Shown here piece by piece: positions 1 to 28,698 of a stretch of DNA of 28,912 nucleotides. The notes under the pieces were generated by a model. It had not been told where the DNA came from. It did no database searches and saw only the letters and a list, made by a program, of their open reading frames with translations. The stretch is from a virus (lineage: Duplodnaviria > Caudoviricetes). The position numbers were made by a program, and so were the translations under genes. The DNA lies in the IMG/VR virus record IMGVR_UViG_3300025167_000046, positions 1 to 28,912 of that record. One strand, 5' to 3'. How positions within the stretch are numbered: the stretch's first letter is position 1; each line of letters begins with the position of its first letter.

Positions 1-204
1 AAGATTAATTGATCTTTCTAGTTTATCAAATCTATCATCATTGGTAGCAGGAGAAGGACTTGCACCTTCTATCTTTTGGGTATGAGCCAAATGAGTATCT
101 ACATTCTCTTTCCTGCTATTCTTATTTTTTGAGCCTGGTGGTCTACCACGCTTCTTTACTACAATTTCTTTTTCAGTAAAATCTAATTCTAATTGGTTGG
201 ACAT
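1..204 (-). CDS. Hypothetical protein with AT-hook motif (3'-truncated by window edge); contains tRNA-Met in frame
   Basis: Manual translation from ATG 204 (AGAGGA RBS upstream): MSNQLELDFTEKEIVVKKRGRPPGSKNKNSRKENVDTHLAHTQKIEGASPSPATNDDRFDKLERSINL..., open to position 1; KKRGRPPGSKNK is a canonical AT-hook. Not in the supplied ORF track. Confidence 0.75.
   Translation of the reverse strand, partial: MSNQLELDFTEKEIVVKKRGRPPGSKNKNSRKENVDTHLAHTQKIEGASPSPATNDDRFDKLERSINL
42..117 (-). tRNA. tRNA-Met (CAT), initiator-like features
   Basis: Acceptor AGCAGGA/TCCTGCT + A + CCA; D stem GAG/CTC (A11-U24); anticodon arm TTTGG-CTCATAC-CCAAA; T arm GAAGG-TGCAAGT-CCTTC; 76 nt. Non-canonical A8 and G55. 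Confidence 0.88.
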
Positions 205-336
205 TTCATCCTCTTTTTTGAGTAATAACCCTCATCCTGCTCCCAGGATCATCCTCGGTCATCGGATATTAGCTAGTTCCTTTTAGACATTGTATTGTCA
301 AGAACCATTTTACCGAATTATACCTACTCCACCCTT

Positions 337-383: not shown

Positions 384-1808
384 TTAATCAAATGAAGATT
401 CAGCTTCTACTCGATTGAAGAAGTTGTTGTTGTTGATTACGCATTTGAACATAATCTTCCATCCAGCTTTACGTCTTAATGCTAGAGGATTACTATCACT
501 TGCCCCAGGAGGGGTTAGTGTAGACTGTAAGTTTTGTAGATCAACAACGGTGTATGCTTCCTTACCGAATAAGAATCCAAGGTGAGTCTTGGAACTAGCT
601 GATGCCATTTCGTCAAGTAAGCTACCAGCAGTTGTACCGGAGGTAGCGATTGCGAAGATTGTAGTACCATTGGCATTGGCAGTATCTCCAATCTCAATAC
701 TTGCTGATGCAGCAAAATATTGATCTGAACCTTGAACATACTTAGTAATAGCTGCGTTTGCAGCACTAGAAGCGGTAATATCTGATGCGGATGTTGCCCA
801 GTAAATCTTATATCGTAGTGTAGCAGTAGATGGTAACACTACGGTAACAGAGTCATCAGTATCGGCAGCACCAACATCCTCAGTTGAAACTTGGTAGATT
901 ACGCTAGGATAATTGAATGTAGTATCGAAACCTACAACTAGAATCCGGTGATAACGTAGTGCCAAATCTCCCCCACCTTCATTAATATTTGTGGTAGGTG
1001 CAGCAGCAGATGTTAAAGTTGGAAGTGAATTGGATCGTAGAAAACGAACACCTAAGAACTCTCCAATCTCTCCATTCCATAACCTCTTTGCAGCAGCGTA
1101 TTTAACTGAGTCAATAAAATCAGGATCAGATGATACATCAAACTCCATGTAGGAATCAAGAATAGATACATAATGATCTCCTAACTCTGGATCGGCAACC
1201 CCTGGCGCACGTTCCATTCCCATAGCACCATTAGCTCGTAGACTTGCCACCATCCTACGCCATGTATCAGAAGTAACTACATCGGTAGAGGTTAGTGAAA
1301 ATCTATTTGCAATAGTACCAGGATAGAAGATAGATGTTCCAGTCGCAACGACATTAAAACATTCTCGCTCAACTGTTTCACCACTCTGAAACCCTAATAG
1401 TTGTAGAGCCTTTTGTAGAGGCTTGTGTTTAATTGTTAATTCAGCAACGTCAGTAATTGTAACGTATGCTCCCCACTGTTCCGCAGTTGCAGTAACAGTT
1501 GAAATACTCATTGTAGTAGAGCTACCCTCATTACCTTCACTAATTACACTGAAAGGTAATGGTAAACGCTCATATCGAGTATATTGGAATGTCTTGGATG
1601 ATTGAGAAGGCAATACTGCCTTATCACCCATTTCATAGAACCTTAGAATCTTATAAGCAATCCTAAGAGTTTTTTCTGCAATGTACTGGATAGCGTCTGA
1701 TCCAGACTGTACGGTATAATTACCGAGAACAGTGGATGTGGTATCTGCTCCACCAGCCATCTTAGGTTGTAACCAAGAAGATAGCTTATTGGATAACCAC
1801 TTGAACAT
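384..1808 (-). CDS. Major capsid protein, N4-gp56-like family, with internal insertion domain
   Basis: Motifs ISEG..., TATAEQWGAYVTITDVAEL, NGEIGEFLGVRF, FGKEAY, D-SNPLALRRKAGWK; position after portal and scaffold. Confidence 0.9.
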   Translation of the reverse strand: MFKWLSNKLSSWLQPKMAGGADTTSTVLGNYTVQSGSDAIQYIAEKTLRIAYKILRFYEMGDKAVLPSQSSKTFQYTRYERLPLPFSVISEGNEGSSTTMSISTVTATAEQWGAYVTITDVAELTIKHKPLQKALQLLGFQSGETVERECFNVVATGTSIFYPGTIANRFSLTSTDVVTSDTWRRMVASLRANGAMGMERAPGVADPELGDHYVSILDSYMEFDVSSDPDFIDSVKYAAAKRLWNGEIGEFLGVRFLRSNSLPTLTSAAAPTTNINEGGGDLALRYHRILVVGFDTTFNYPSVIYQVSTEDVGAADTDDSVTVVLPSTATLRYKIYWATSASDITASSAANAAITKYVQGSDQYFAASASIEIGDTANANGTTIFAIATSGTTAGSLLDEMASASSKTHLGFLFGKEAYTVVDLQNLQSTLTPPGASDSNPLALRRKAGWKIMFKCVINNNNFFNRVEAESSFD

Positions 1809-3089: not shown

Positions 3090-3164
3090 TGGTCAGGGAG
3101 ATTGGATTCGCACCAATGTCCTCTCGGTTCCAAGCCGAGTAGTCTACTACTGACTTACCCCCTG
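3090..3164 (-). tRNA. tRNA-Pro (TGG)
   Basis: Acceptor CAGGGGG/CTCCCTG + A + CCA; anticodon arm CTCGG-CTTGGAA-CCGAG; T arm ATTGG-TGCGAAT-CCAAT. Confidence 0.9.
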
Positions 3165-3232
3165 CTCTTAATTTGTTTTTTACTTGTATAAATAGGTTTC
3201 TTACTTTCAGAATCCTTCCACGTTTTACCCAT
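3155..3232 (-). CDS. 25-aa basic mini-ORF ending inside tRNA-Pro
   Basis: TAATG coupling with upstream gene; MGKTWKDSESKKPIYTSKKQIKSRG*; stop is tRNA positions 8-10. Confidence 0.4.
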   Translation of the reverse strand: MGKTWKDSESKKPIYTSKKQIKSRG

Positions 3233-17877: not shown

Positions 17878-18834
17878 ATGACTTTTAAACCTTATCCAAA
17901 AGTTTATAACATAGGCAGTAAAGGATTTGAGAGAATCTTTGAATTGCCTGTAGAGATATCAGAAAAGATTGATGGGTCTAACGTATCTATCCATCGGACG
18001 GAAGAAGGAATAAAATTAGCGTCCAGATCAAAATGGTTATCACACCAATCTCCAGGTGATGTAGGAATGTTTAGCAAATTTGTTAATTGGGTTAGATGTA
18101 GTGAATTCGATCTATCCTGCCTTCCTTTAGGTTCTGCACTGTGGGGAGAATTTAGCAATAACCATAATGTTTTAAAGTATGAAAAGACTTGTCCATTTAT
18201 TCTGTTTGATGTAAGTTACACAGATGAATTTGGGAATAGAAAATTTTTACCAAGAAACGAATGGAATAGTTTTTTTAGGAACTGGTTTGGATCGGATGAT
18301 TTTATGTATGAACATTTAAATCCGATAAAAGTATTGTTTACACCACAAGAAAATACTTCGCTCAGTAGATTGCCCATGCCAATTAAAGAATGGATGGATA
18401 GTATTTTAAAAACTCCTTCGATGTTAGGTGGTAAAATTGAGGGGATAGCAATAAAAAATTATACAGAATTAACTTCGCATGGTGAATTGTTATTTTGTAA
18501 ATATGTAGCACCGGAATTTAAAGAACAGCACAGAGTAAGCACGAAGGGATTACCTGGAGAACCTATAGAAAAACAGATAGCAGACAGTTATTACAACGAT
18601 GCCAGATTGGTAAAGGCAATAAGTAGATTGAAAGAGGATGGCAGATGGACAGGCGAATTAAAAGACATAGGCCCATTGATAGGGATTGTTAATCAAGATA
18701 TTTATACTGAGTGTGAACAAGATATTAAACAAGACTTGTTCGATCATTTTTGGAAACAAATAACAAGGATGGTAACAAGTAGAATACCACAAAATTATAA
18801 AGATCATTTGGAGAAAAACAATGCTAAGACTTAG
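17878..18834 (+). CDS. RNA ligase, Rnl2-like family
   Basis: YPKV, motif I EKIDGSN, ASRS, WGEF, FILFDV, IEGIAIK, CKYVAPEFKE. Confidence 0.85.
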   Translation: MTFKPYPKVYNIGSKGFERIFELPVEISEKIDGSNVSIHRTEEGIKLASRSKWLSHQSPGDVGMFSKFVNWVRCSEFDLSCLPLGSALWGEFSNNHNVLKYEKTCPFILFDVSYTDEFGNRKFLPRNEWNSFFRNWFGSDDFMYEHLNPIKVLFTPQENTSLSRLPMPIKEWMDSILKTPSMLGGKIEGIAIKNYTELTSHGELLFCKYVAPEFKEQHRVSTKGLPGEPIEKQIADSYYNDARLVKAISRLKEDGRWTGELKDIGPLIGIVNQDIYTECEQDIKQDLFDHFWKQITRMVTSRIPQNYKDHLEKNNAKT

Positions 18835-19024
18835 ATATTTCAAGGCAGCGAAACAGCGACATGATTTTCAATTTGTTGGGCATCAAGTAAAATTGCCAGC
18901 GAACCATGAAATTCAGGCGCAATTATGGTATAAATTTTTCTGGCATTGTGTACCAGGGGTAGTTTATGACACTCTAAGAGAGTTATTTGTGAGGAATGAT
19001 GACCCCATCACGCCAGGAGAGTGA
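18821..19024 (+). CDS. Hypothetical protein
   Basis: GGAG RBS, overlaps both neighbours. Confidence 0.6.
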   Translation: MLRLRYFKAAKQRHDFQFVGHQVKLPANHEIQAQLWYKFFWHCVPGVVYDTLRELFVRNDDPITPGE

Positions 19025-20550
19025 TGATGTTGGAAAACTATATTGAGCAATACAAAAAACTCGGATGGAAATTAATACCACTCAAAGAGAAGATACCATT
19101 TTTAAAAGACTGGCAAAATAGGGTATGGGACACCCCGATTACTTATAACGGGAATATAGGAATTCAAACAGGGGAGGTATCTGGAATAATTGTAGTGGAT
19201 GTTGACCACGAAATTTTTGATGATAGTGTGGTGGAAAAAACAATATTCGAGAGTATAACTCCATTCACAAGAACAGGCAAAGGATGGCACTATTATTTTA
19301 AATACCTAGAAGGAGTTAGAAATTCTGTAGCAAAACTAGGGCCTGGGATTGATATTCGATCAAATAATGGGTATGTAGTTGCTCCCCCATCTATTCATCC
19401 AGACACCCATAAACCTTACGAATGGATTGTACCACCTATGGAATGCCCACTAGCAGAATTTCCAAAAGAATTATATGAAAAGTTGCAGCACAAAGAGTAT
19501 GAAGATTTTCACGGCCACAATATTATAAATTTAGATATGGTAAAAGAAGGCCAAAGAAATAATTATCTTACTTCACTAGCAGGCACTATGCGAAATAGAG
19601 GGTTTGGTTTTGAAGCAATCTATAAAGCAATAGATCAAGAAAATCAAGATAAATGTAATCCACCATTGGAACAATATGAAGTGAGAACAATAGCAGAAAG
19701 TATATCAAAGTATGAACCACAAGATCGAGTGGGGGTAGCTCCAAACGTAGAGCAGTCGTCTCCAAAACGACAGGATGATGGTTCAAATCCATCCCCCCAT
19801 GCCAATATTCATAAATATTCTGAGATTAAAAAGATAGAATTTCCACCAGTGGAAGTTATCCCTACAGGCATAAAAAGTTTAGATCAATACTTCGATGGTG
19901 GATTAGGATTAAAAGAGCTAAGTTTATTCGTAGCAGAACAAGAGACAGGTAAATCAACTATTGCTTGTCAAATCGGAGCTAATGCAGTCAGGAATGGATA
20001 TAATGTATTGCATGTCTTTTATGAAGATGAATTAAAATCGGTGAAAGAAAGATATGATGGACATAACATTAATCCAGAAGAATCTTTAACAGATGTTTTT
20101 TTACTAGATGCTACATCCCATCCGGTTAGCGTAGAGACAATAGAAAAAAAGATCAAAGAAATAAAACCAGGGCTAGTGATTGTGGATTACTTTGCCAGGA
20201 TACCATCATCAAGAGGATTGAATGAAAACAGGTTTGAACTTAGAGACACGATGATGAAGTTAGGTAATCTTGCAAGGCAGAATGATTGTCATGTTATGGT
20301 TTTAGATCATGTTACTATCACCTTCAAAGATTATTCTGATAGTAAGGAACCCTGGTGTTATAAGATGCGAACACACAGAATAGCAGAGGCAAAGATGTTT
20401 AAATTAATGGTGATTAATCTTTGTATCGGGATGGTGAGGGACAAAGATGAAAAAACTGTATGGGTAACTGGGATGAAAAATAAGAGAAGGGCTAGACAAT
20501 TATTCAAACAATTTACTATTGATTGGGAAAAGGGAGTATTCAATGGATAG
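19021..20550 (+). CDS. Bifunctional primase-polymerase + PriCT + SF4-like helicase fusion
   Basis: NIGIQTG, VVDVD, RTGKGWHYYF, DIRSNNGYVVAPPSIH; EGQRNNYL (PriCT); Walker A AEQETGKST, Walker B VIVDY. Confidence 0.9.
   Translation: MMMLENYIEQYKKLGWKLIPLKEKIPFLKDWQNRVWDTPITYNGNIGIQTGEVSGIIVVDVDHEIFDDSVVEKTIFESITPFTRTGKGWHYYFKYLEGVRNSVAKLGPGIDIRSNNGYVVAPPSIHPDTHKPYEWIVPPMECPLAEFPKELYEKLQHKEYEDFHGHNIINLDMVKEGQRNNYLTSLAGTMRNRGFGFEAIYKAIDQENQDKCNPPLEQYEVRTIAESISKYEPQDRVGVAPNVEQSSPKRQDDGSNPSPHANIHKYSEIKKIEFPPVEVIPTGIKSLDQYFDGGLGLKELSLFVAEQETGKSTIACQIGANAVRNGYNVLHVFYEDELKSVKERYDGHNINPEESLTDVFLLDATSHPVSVETIEKKIKEIKPGLVIVDYFARIPSSRGLNENRFELRDTMMKLGNLARQNDCHVMVLDHVTITFKDYSDSKEPWCYKMRTHRIAEAKMFKLMVINLCIGMVRDKDEKTVWVTGMKNKRRARQLFKQFTIDWEKGVFNG
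19729..19804 (+). tRNA. tRNA-Trp (CCA), nested in the primase-helicase CDS
   Basis: Acceptor GTGGGGG/CCCCCAT + G73 + CCA; D stem GCTC/GAGC; anticodon arm GTCGT-CTCCAAA-ACGAC; T arm GATGG-TTCAAAT-CCATC; 76 nt. Confidence 0.93.
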
Positions 20551-20899: not shown

Positions 20900-21186
20900 G
20901 TAAAATAATTATAGAAATAGAAACACTAAGATCAGGCCAGCCAAGAGCATATGCTGATTCGGTGTATGAATATTTTGTTACAGTAAAAAATTATTGGAAC
21001 AGTACGACAGGAGAACAAGAAGGGACATTCACCCCGAAGGAAGAAGATATTAAGGAATTGGTACAAATGTTTGGGCATAAATTTGTAGAAAAATCTACTT
21101 GTTGGGCTGATCCTGTATTGAAAGAATTTGAAAAGATAGACTTCAGAACATATAGAGTAAGAATTATTGACCCCTTCAAGGATTAA
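20896..21186 (+). CDS. Hypothetical protein
   Basis: ATGA-coupled start, in operon. Confidence 0.65.
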   Translation: MSKIIIEIETLRSGQPRAYADSVYEYFVTVKNYWNSTTGEQEGTFTPKEEDIKELVQMFGHKFVEKSTCWADPVLKEFEKIDFRTYRVRIIDPFKD

Positions 21187-21187
21187 T

Positions 21188-22839
21188 ATGGTGATTACAC
21201 TCGATTGCGAAACCATCGGCGTAGATCATCATCACCCTGATTTTAAAGTATTGTTTAATGGGTTTTATGATCCCGAAGATAATTTTTTGTATCAAGGGCC
21301 TTGTGATGTAACCGTAACGACTGATCACCCAGTAACATTTATAGGACACAATATTAAATTTGATCTTAAATGTTTATTAAAACAAGGTTATAGTTTATCA
21401 GATAATTTTTATGACACCCAGGTAGCGGTACATATTCTCAGGGAAGATTTAGATAGTCATGGTTATAAACTGGAAAATTTGGCAAAGTTATTATATCAGT
21501 ATCCTAATTACAAGAAGATGATAGATTTTGAAAGAGAAGAATATTGGAATGACATCGGATGGTTAAAACTTTATAACAAACACGATTTAATATTCACAAA
21601 ACAGTTAAAGAATTTAACAGAGCCAGCATTAAAAAGAACTGGGAAGTGGGCACTATTTCAAATGATGATGGAGTATGTGAAGCATCTAACCACACTCGAA
21701 ATGAGAGGGATAAAAATAGATGTCGATGAATTAGATAGACAGGGAGCGATATGGACAGCCAAGAGAATAAAAACTCTCGAAGAACTGAGAAATTATTCCA
21801 CCAAGTTAGATTGGGATAGTGATACATCGAAGCCCGTTAAGGAATATTTCCATAAATATTTTAAAGTCCCATTAACAGAAAAAAAGAACATAAAATTAAA
21901 TGAACTTGTATTAAAAGATTTGGCTGAAAATCAAGAATCAAAAGAAGCAGAGTTGGTTTTAATATTGAGAGCATGTACAAAACAAATAGGAACATATAAT
22001 GAAGGGTTCAGATCGAGGCTTTACGAGGGATATTATTACCCTGATTATTCTCTTATCTCTACTCTTACTGGTAGGTTAAGTGAACATTTTATTCAGGTGA
22101 TGCCAAGAAAAGAAACGAGTGAATTTAAAAAGTGCATAGTTTCAAAATTTCCTGACGGATACTTGTTATCAAATGACTGGTCAAGGTTGGAAGCATTACT
22201 TCAAGCAGAGTTAGTCTGGATTGTAACAGGAAAGCACAAGCTGGCAGATGATCTTATGTCAGGGTATGATATTCATGACGCTACATTAAAGAAATTTAAA
22301 TTCTTACCGGATAGAACTAGGGCCAAGAATGCAAATTTTAGTACGATATTTGGTGGCAGAGGCTACACCTTAGTACAGGAGTATGGGTTCACATGGCCCC
22401 AGGCGAAGGAATTTGTACATGATTTAACTGTTATCAGATATCCAGAATTATCAGAACTATTCGGAATAATAGGGGCCAGAATTATAAATGAACATTATGT
22501 AGAGCATCCTTACACCCATAGAGGTAGGCATACTGATAATTATAATGAAGGACTGAATGCTCCAATTCAAGGGATAGGCACAGATATAACAAGATTATGA
22601 CAATCGTGTTATCGGAGAAGTTGCAAGGATATCAGAGCCATGTGTGCTTGGATTGTCATGATGATCTCACTATTGATGTACATCCAGAGGAAAAAGATGA
22701 AGTTATTCAGATAGTTAAGAAGGAGTATGGTAACTTCTCCGAACACTTTCACAGATTTTTTGGAGTAGAATTAAAGGTAAGGTACAATGCTGAACATAAG
22801 ATAGGGAGAAATTTATATGACATGGAAAAAATTACTTAA
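21188..22839 (+). CDS. Family A DNA polymerase with 3'-5' exonuclease, split by a frameshift near 22585-22600
   Basis: Exo DCET, GHNIKFD, YNKHD; TLTGRLS; motif A NDWSRLE; motif B RTRAKNANFSTIFG; NAPIQG; motif C CHDDL lies in the second ORF 22597-22839. Confidence 0.88.
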
Positions 22840-28175: not shown

Positions 28176-28598
28176 ATGAACATTAGATTTTTTGAGATTG
28201 CCAAACTAGCTGCAATTAAAAGCGAACATAGGATTAAGATAGGGGCGGTGTTAGTCAAGAATGGCAAACCTGTAGCGATTGGGTTTAATAAGGTAGGTAA
28301 GACACATCCTAAAGCTGAATGGTTTATCCATGCAGAACTAGATTGTGTTTTAGAAACTAAACATACTAATTGGAAAAATACTGCGTTGTATGTTTACAGA
28401 ACGAATAGATTAGATCAAGTGCTGAATTGTAAACCTTGTCATAATTGTCAGGAAGTATTAAAACTGTTTGGAGTTAAAAAAGTGTATTATACTACAGGCG
28501 CAAGTATTGAAAAACAAGAATACCATAAATCTAATGTGCCTTACGGAGATTGGGTATATATATATCATGTTCCTGAATATGGAGAATTAAAACTATGA
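28176..28598 (+). CDS. Zn-dependent CMP/dCMP-type deaminase
   Basis: IGAVLVK, IHAE, KPCHNC, VKKVYY. Confidence 0.85.
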   Translation: MNIRFFEIAKLAAIKSEHRIKIGAVLVKNGKPVAIGFNKVGKTHPKAEWFIHAELDCVLETKHTNWKNTALYVYRTNRLDQVLNCKPCHNCQEVLKLFGVKKVYYTTGASIEKQEYHKSNVPYGDWVYIYHVPEYGELKL

Positions 28599-28600
28599 TT

Positions 28601-28673
28601 GGGGATGTGGCTCGAATGGATAGGCAGCAGTCCGTAAAATTGCGTCATGCAGGTTCAAGTCCTGTCGTCCCCA
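28601..28673 (+). tRNA. Atypical tRNA, GTA anticodon (Tyr-like), no encoded CCA
   Basis: Acceptor GGGGATG/CGTCCCC + A; anticodon arm GCAGT-CCGTAAA-ATTGC; T arm GCAGG-TTCAAGT-CCTGT; short variable loop; C33. Confidence 0.75.
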
Positions 28674-28698
28674 CTGATATTTTTAATAGGAGATAAAA

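Follow-up and report, generated by a model that had tools for sequence, protein, structure and literature searches.

The window, by which we mean the whole 28,912-nt phage contig analysed here, carries genes for the terminase, the portal and the major capsid protein on its minus strand, and genes for a primase-helicase, DNA polymerase A, nucleases and a GH108 endolysin on its plus strand. Because a GH108 endolysin is encoded, we infer that the host is a bacterium. The genome collection contained no relative of the capsid protein and no exact match to the end of the tRNA described below, and so gave no host match. The DNA polymerase A gene (21167-22839, plus strand) is split into ORFs of 477 and 80 amino acids; in the related phage G006 it is a single ORF of 548 amino acids. 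The features on which our analysis centres are the following.

1..204, minus strand: first 68 codons of the gene for a conserved phage protein of 166 amino acids, directly downstream of the capsid gene and cut by the contig end
1..39, minus strand: start of a long helix predicted by AlphaFold at residues 56-99, beginning immediately after the tRNA-coded segment
42..117, minus strand: tRNA(CAU), 76 nt, with an encoded CCA (44-42) and its anticodon at 84-82; encodes protein residues 30-55
121..156, minus strand: residues 17-28, a basic motif resembling an AT-hook, conserved in four variants whose codons for it differ synonymously; also present in a tRNA-less homologue
209..214, minus strand: Shine-Dalgarno-like AGAGGA, with GAGGA (213-209) four bases before the ATG; kept in all four aligned leaders
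226..256, minus strand: conserved leader motif with an internal stem-loop, the stem of which differs in sequence in G006 yet still pairs
384..1808, minus strand: major capsid protein gene (phrog_1357, E 1e-35), upstream of the nested-tRNA gene on the same strand
19021..20550, plus strand: primase-helicase gene (Prim-Pol, PriCT-1, AAA_25/DnaB-like), a 509-codon ORF and the second nesting site
19729..19804, plus strand: tRNA-Trp(CCA), in frame in the linker between PriCT-1 and the helicase; the relatives G001 and G002 have a tRNA(CAU) instead

The ORF that runs from position 204 to position 1 of the minus strand follows a GAGGA motif, passes through the tRNA without a stop codon and continues into the protein-like sequence NDDRFDKLERSINL, in agreement with the original prediction. 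Five contigs of the viral collection share the tRNA(CAU) stretch and complete the ORF to 166 codons, so the frame does not stop just past the window; the full ORF lies at 7605-8105 of contig L010 and differs from the window at three bases over the shared 204 nt. The product had been described as an AT-hook protein, a label that we take to rest on its RGRP core. This core is present and conserved among the variants of the gene, but the 68-residue piece matched no family in Pfam or PHROGs at E 0.01, including the Pfam AT_hook family (PF02178). The 166-residue protein likewise had no Pfam or PHROGs family, no tblastn match in isolate phages and no usable Atlas match, and its fold had no match at E 0.001 in viral or PDB libraries. 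In the AlphaFold model, residues 1-55 are without secondary structure (pLDDT about 48-57 for the blocks covering residues 1-50), and the tRNA-coded residues 30-55 are predicted to be disordered. The long helix is followed by a beta-hairpin plus helix domain at residues 105-151 (pLDDT 82-90). Judging from its position and its basic N-terminus, the protein is likely a small virion protein or a DNA-binding late protein.

Our search for homologues returned both kinds, with and without the tRNA. The C-terminal domain recurs in tRNA-less proteins at the same position behind the capsid gene in more distant phages, and further homologues of this domain are 75-131 residues long. The L142 protein combines the same basic motif with the same C-terminal domain through a plain linker containing no tRNA. 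A tree of the downstream part of the protein gave no resolved branching. In L140, from a more distant phage, a candidate endonuclease VII-like ORF (1480-1848; cysteine pattern, by eye) lies between the capsid gene and the tRNA-less homologue.

We considered whether the frame is open by chance, in which case the tRNA would be an ordinary intergenic gene and the protein would begin after it. Open frames across tRNAs are frequent: among 60 control tRNAs taken from four regions of isolated phages, 36 have at least one. In addition, distant homologues start at the helix or at the C-terminal domain, and a public gene call, P0024, covers only the last 73 amino acids of the Thr-bearing G001-type gene, a piece consistent with truncation around an annotated tRNA. 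Against this, not one of the 60 controls lies in a frame that is open for at least 25 codons upstream and at least 50 codons downstream, and on this basis the long conserved frame on both sides of the tRNA is not a product of chance. All six pairwise comparisons of the four distinct DNA variants that make up our small sample of this site gave pN below pS on both sides of the tRNA, a mark of purifying selection on the protein, with pN of 0.04-0.35 versus pS of 0.35-0.83 upstream and pN of 0.09-0.29 versus pS of 0.47-0.74 downstream. The 29-54 upstream codons, which are selected at the protein level, are free of stops up to the tRNA in 4/4 variants, and in none of the four is there an in-frame start codon within the first 31 codons past the tRNA; the protein does not, then, start only after it. 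Moreover, this N-terminal motif and this C-terminal domain are found joined in the L142 protein too, whose gene has no tRNA, and at the second site the helicase half continues the primase frame in all 10 aligned homologues. A chance frame is very improbable in the light of these comparisons, which confirm, at the level of sequence, that the 166-codon ORF is a genuine conserved gene running through the tRNA.

The second case of nesting on which the original prediction drew is genuine, with the tRNA-Trp at 19729-19804 lying within the 509-codon primase-helicase ORF. As predicted, base 1 of the tRNA(CAU) is codon position 1 and its CAT anticodon is an in-frame codon (pair table). The use of this common register as independent evidence, however, did not survive comparison with the controls. 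Six of the seven nested variants have stops within the tRNA in each of the two remaining frames, and among controls of 76 nt with a CCA and the anticodon at position 34, frame 1 is open in 3/3. Because stops close the other frames, the shared register and the in-frame anticodon are largely forced. Across the controls, the T-arm register was open in 21 of 59, versus 13 and 11 for the other registers. We consequently dropped the register match as evidence; with inheritance at each site, there are just two independent events. The shared NCC-AAT end, to which meaning had also been attached, amounts to the CCA plus chance, and the Thr tRNAs of relatives end in TCC-ATT.

Turning to the tRNA itself, Rfam RF00005 matches positions 45-117 with 46.6 bits (gathering threshold 29; E 3.9e-7), the CCA then following at 44-42. 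ARAGORN missed the tRNA(CAU) with default settings and found 42-117 with a relaxed threshold. The sequence makes a four-arm cloverleaf in which 20 of 21 canonical pairs form (pair table). This cloverleaf is the minimum-energy fold, and it is also the fold predicted for the Met copy within 60-nt flanks, a setting in which the D and anticodon arms of the G006 Thr and site-2 Met tRNAs were not recovered. Its energy is unremarkable (z -1.58; 15 of 200 shuffles were as good), and it is the covariance score, not the folding energy, that singles out the tRNA(CAU). A 3' CCA, U33, a purine at position 37 and a 7-nt anticodon loop are all in place. The features A1-U72, A8, A11-U24 and G55 are present as had been claimed, and the core departs from the invariant U8, G18, A21 and U55, having A8, A18, U21 and G55 together with an A13-A22 mismatch.

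Bacterial initiator tRNA-fMet has an unpaired C1:A72, three consecutive G-C pairs at 29-41, 30-40 and 31-39, and A11-U24, G2-C71, C3-G70 and A73. The last four are all present in the tRNA(CAU), and from the sequence they would favour Met over a lysidine-modified Ile2 identity. Its earlier description as initiator-like is borne out by A11-U24, G2-C71 and C3-G70, but not by the 1:72 mismatch, which is absent since A1 and U72 are paired, and only in part by the end of the anticodon stem, where U29-A41, G30-C40 and G31-C39 provide two of the three G-C pairs. The nearest match in an isolate phage is a Caulobacter phage tRNA-Met with an identical anticodon stem (79.6% over 49 nt, E 4e-3). G55 is found in none of 59 control tRNAs. 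Within this phage group it occurs together with A18 in the Met, G001 Thr and window Pro tRNAs (A18 of the Pro tRNA being assigned by its position before G19), and G18 accompanies U55 in the G006 Thr and site-2 Met tRNAs. Because positions 18 and 55 of tRNA form a tertiary pair and covary within the group, G55 of the Met copy is likely compensated by A18. Word matching against the literature found no description of the A18/G55 combination.

The main point, which the original prediction overlooked, is that the identity of the tRNA differs between relatives at both sites. At site 1, the four variants comprise the Met type of G003 and the window, a second Met type in G007 with four differences in the tRNA, and the Thr types of G001 and G006. 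G001 and G006 (a complete genome of 40,370 nt), with capsid proteins 93% and 66% identical to that of the window, respectively, hold a tRNA-Thr(UGU) with Rfam scores of 53.4 and 62.4 bits. The Met and Thr tRNAs have only 33-40 of 76 bases in common, and similarity of the flanks resumes within a few codons on either side of the swap. The alignment shows a near-precise substitution of one tRNA for the other. A tree of 10 capsid sequences groups the four tRNA-bearing phages in one clade (100/100), in which G006 branches first and the three closest phages show no resolved order. On this branching, the simplest history would be that the ancestor of the clade gained a nested tRNA once, with Thr ancestral by parsimony and Met introduced later by recombination.

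We next asked how selection acts on the RNA. The covariation evidence comes from one single pair of sequences, the Thr tRNAs of G001 and G006, which differ at 20 positions, 13 of them in stems. Five pairs have changed on both sides, two are kept via a one-sided change and one is broken; pairing was preserved to this extent in only 4 of 100,000 random placements. The two also differ in having G18/U55 (G006) versus A18/G55 (G001). Synonymous changes in this pair number 4.5 of 19.8 in the tRNA versus 69.5 of 101 in the flanks (p 3e-4), and within the tRNA pN is about equal to pS (0.27 versus 0.23). For the Met pair, the corresponding values are 2 of 16.5 versus 42.5 of 89 (Fisher p 0.012). The four differing positions of the Met pair include no compensatory pair, and one change breaks 27-43 in G007. 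Because the gene of G007 has a G001-like N-terminus, recent recombination could be partly responsible for the low divergence of the Met pair. The CCA is kept in all seven nested variants, including C75, which is synonymous and stands where C is used in 8-15% of codons. On these comparisons, RNA-level selection clearly acts on the slot in the Thr lineages; in the Met lineage of the window it probably does so as well, although less surely.

Nested tRNAs can decay or be dispensable, given that the conserved pair 53-61 is missing from one of the Met variants at site 2 and that G006 is without a site-2 tRNA. The Met tRNA of the window may likewise be a decaying relic that was functional when it replaced Thr and now merely supplies linker codons to a real protein. 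Its A8, its A13-A22 mismatch, an Rfam score below those of the Thr, Trp and Pro tRNAs (46.6 versus 53-63 bits) and its omission by default ARAGORN would fit such decay, as would the broken pairs of the G007 variant and of one Met variant at site 2, and the relic-looking residues, recognised by eye, at the ends of distant primase-helicase linkers without a detectable tRNA. Nevertheless, synonymous sites are under more constraint in the Met tRNA than in its flanks (p 0.012), and the acceptor and T stems, U33, the CCA and A18/G55 are intact in both Met variants. We therefore regard a relic as unlikely.

At site 2, the tRNA(CAU) found in G001 and G002 is different from the site-1 Met tRNA, and its 3' junction is identical to that of the window; no tRNA is detectable in the G006 linker. 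At 53-54 of 76 bases the tRNA-Trp of the window is identical to the site-1 Thr tRNAs, which suggests that tRNA genes from a shared pool may move between sites. Among more distant relatives, default ARAGORN detected no linker tRNA at site 2 in 60 loci (of 73 new loci). The linkers of P0006, P0009, P0010 and P0016 look as if translated from tRNAs for Thr, Gly, Gly and Trp, respectively; these are known as protein only and were excluded from the counts. In the linkers of L027 (G006), P0012 and P0023, which have no detectable tRNA, the final residues resemble a translated T-arm by eye and are possibly worn tRNA remnants.

An RNA ligase gene, possibly a tRNA-repair gene, lies just upstream of the primase-helicase gene of the window (17878-18834, plus strand) and was not found in the examined regions of G001, G002 and G006. 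Intron-like excision followed by religation was considered and ruled out, as the removal of 73 or 76 nt would shift the frame; the distribution of the ligase gene counts against it as well.

Rfam recognised four tRNAs in the window, Pro (62.8 bits), Trp (59.2), Met (46.6) and Tyr (40.0), of which just two, Met and Trp, lie wholly within conserved genes. The proposal that placing tRNAs inside coding sequences is a genome strategy thus holds for half of the tRNAs here, but it gains from the relatives, where the Rfam tRNAs nested in frame are 2/2 in G001, 1/1 in G002 and 1/1 in the complete genome of G006; these counts support nesting as the norm in this phage group. The tRNA-Tyr (28601-28673, plus strand; 40 bits) has a short variable arm and no CCA, and sits in frame 1 of a 33-codon ORF (28595-28696, plus strand) whose ATG overlaps the stop codon of a dCMP deaminase gene. 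This ORF had no homologue in the examined regions of relatives. For the tRNA-Pro, in the region 3090-3232 of the minus strand, tRNA bases 8-10 are the stop codon of a 25-codon ORF and the overlap is limited to that stop; the third frame of this tRNA runs on without a stop into the gene that follows, with no upstream start codon.

The acceptance of unrelated isotypes at each site (Met and Thr; Trp and Met) could mean that the cloverleaf is selected as a structure and does not decode. It might work in cis, marking the transcript for RNase P cleavage and so reducing expression past the capsid gene, or it might work in trans and lure host anticodon nucleases or sensors of uncharged tRNA as a decoy. 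The anticodon would then be incidental, which would explain the free swapping. RNase P reads the acceptor and T arms, and these are the arms best kept, the D arms being kept worst. Yet the anticodon loops are canonical (U33, A37, 7 nt) in 7/7 variants, the Thr anticodon has survived deep divergence on a stem whose changes are compensated, and in these genomes the codons read by UGU and UGG rank first or second in use among those for Thr and Pro. A purely structural role seems improbable to us.

As tRNA genes are common targets of integration, we also weighed whether the nested tRNA is an attP site for integration into a host tRNA gene. No integrase was found among the 61 ORFs of the window (PHROGs) or among the 35 ORFs of at least 110 amino acids in G006 (Pfam), the 3' 32 nt of the tRNA had no exact match in the genome collection, and the tRNA is a whole one that varies from one close relative to the next. 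This explanation is largely refuted and very improbable.

Site 1 holds a complete tRNA gene, placed in frame in the predicted disordered linker of a conserved 166-residue late-region protein, and we consider it likely that the stretch is dual-coding, each transcript being either translated or, presumably, cut to release the tRNA. Dual coding is likely because relatives hold a different tRNA at the same site. A late transcript through the capsid gene would be translated through the unfolded tRNA, or else the tRNA would fold and be processed. Cleavage by RNase P and 3' trimming make up the established pathway of tRNA maturation; here, host RNase P would cut at tRNA base 1 and 3' nucleases would trim to the encoded CCA. 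A message cut in this way would yield no full protein, leave a 29-codon non-stop upstream fragment and lower the output of the 166-residue protein, and the downstream genes would keep their own starts. Because the gene sits right behind the capsid gene, an abundant late transcript would be expected to supply the tRNA amply. Insertions would survive only where the frame is open and the protein tolerates any 25 residues, and a disordered linker with such tolerance is where nesting would persist. The benefit would probably be the usual one of phage tRNAs, that is, topping up host tRNAs that are cut, scarce or under strain.

Two conserved non-coding motifs lie in the leader, between the capsid stop codon and the nested-tRNA gene: the stem-loop motif at 226-256 and an 11-nt purine-rich box at 324-334 (minus strand), which is also present in L138 and L142 (compare L107 1220-1310). 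Neither matched Rfam; they could be a translational operator or a processing signal. No sense-strand sigma-70-like promoter was found near the gene.

Beyond dual coding at this one site, disordered linkers in this phage group might serve as interchangeable slots for tRNA cassettes, with end-to-end exchange of whole functional tRNA genes in essential or highly expressed genes changing the tRNA set without intergenic space and excision acting as punctuation of the mRNA. Excision would then lower expression past the capsid gene and also inside the primase-helicase message, and the tRNA set could be changed, for example, against host anticodon nucleases. We offer this wider proposal tentatively and think it rather less likely than not to hold in full.

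A comparable layout has been described by bioinformatic prediction in Alphaproteobacteria, where selC, encoding tRNA-Sec, is nested in the selB ORF (Mukai 2021; PMC8124441); the accessible part of that article hypothesises that a transcript is either translated or processed, the latter leaving an upstream fragment that lacks a stop codon, and describes remnants in some lineages. The two cases have in common a whole sense-strand tRNA, in frame, inside a protein ORF. As far as that part of the article goes, selC forms a C-terminal extension, the tRNA is always tRNA-Sec and SelB binds it, giving a functional link, whereas the phage tRNA lies between conserved parts of a protein to which it has no evident link, occurs in two genes of one genome and gives way to unrelated tRNAs in close relatives. 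The phage arrangement thus operates in a similar manner yet falls outside the selC-in-selB type. The same source cites a mitochondrial tRNA-Lys inside cox1 of Armadillidium vulgare. As cited there, this case resembles the phage one in its full nesting, direct orientation and proposed alternative processing, and differs in being a truncated 60-nt organellar tRNA of a fixed gene set, for which the cited text reports no exchange of isotypes.

Ordinary phage tRNAs, such as those of the T5 cluster, are like the nested ones in their encoded CCA and canonical anticodon loops, but they are intergenic or overlap a gene end only, with 0/60 inside a long open frame. Evasion of anticodon nucleases and replacement of cut host tRNAs are put forward as hypotheses for phage tRNAs in the accessible part of PMC10264068. 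Word matching on titles and the starts of abstracts, with incomplete journal coverage, found no description of nested tRNAs in phage genes. Within that literature, the layout is known for one bacterial gene and for animal mitochondria, and the phage version with exchanged isotypes appears to be new.

Taken together, as far as sequence comparison can carry it, the dual-coding arrangement is real and supported by unusually clean comparative evidence, and it is of a kind that is known but barely documented. To gene callers and tRNA finders, a stretch is either tRNA or coding sequence and never both, and nested cases are hidden in both directions, because a public call cut the Thr-bearing gene to 73 amino acids and default ARAGORN dropped the Met tRNA. 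Counts of phage tRNAs and lengths of phage proteins may be wrong as a result. The natural series at the two sites (none, Thr, diverged Thr, Met; none, Trp, Met) separates RNA-level from protein-level selection on the same bases, and the either/or model proposed for selC in selB becomes testable with a 500-nt gene in a laboratory host. That isotypes are exchanged while the site stays fixed is also relevant to the question of why a phage carries the tRNAs it does.
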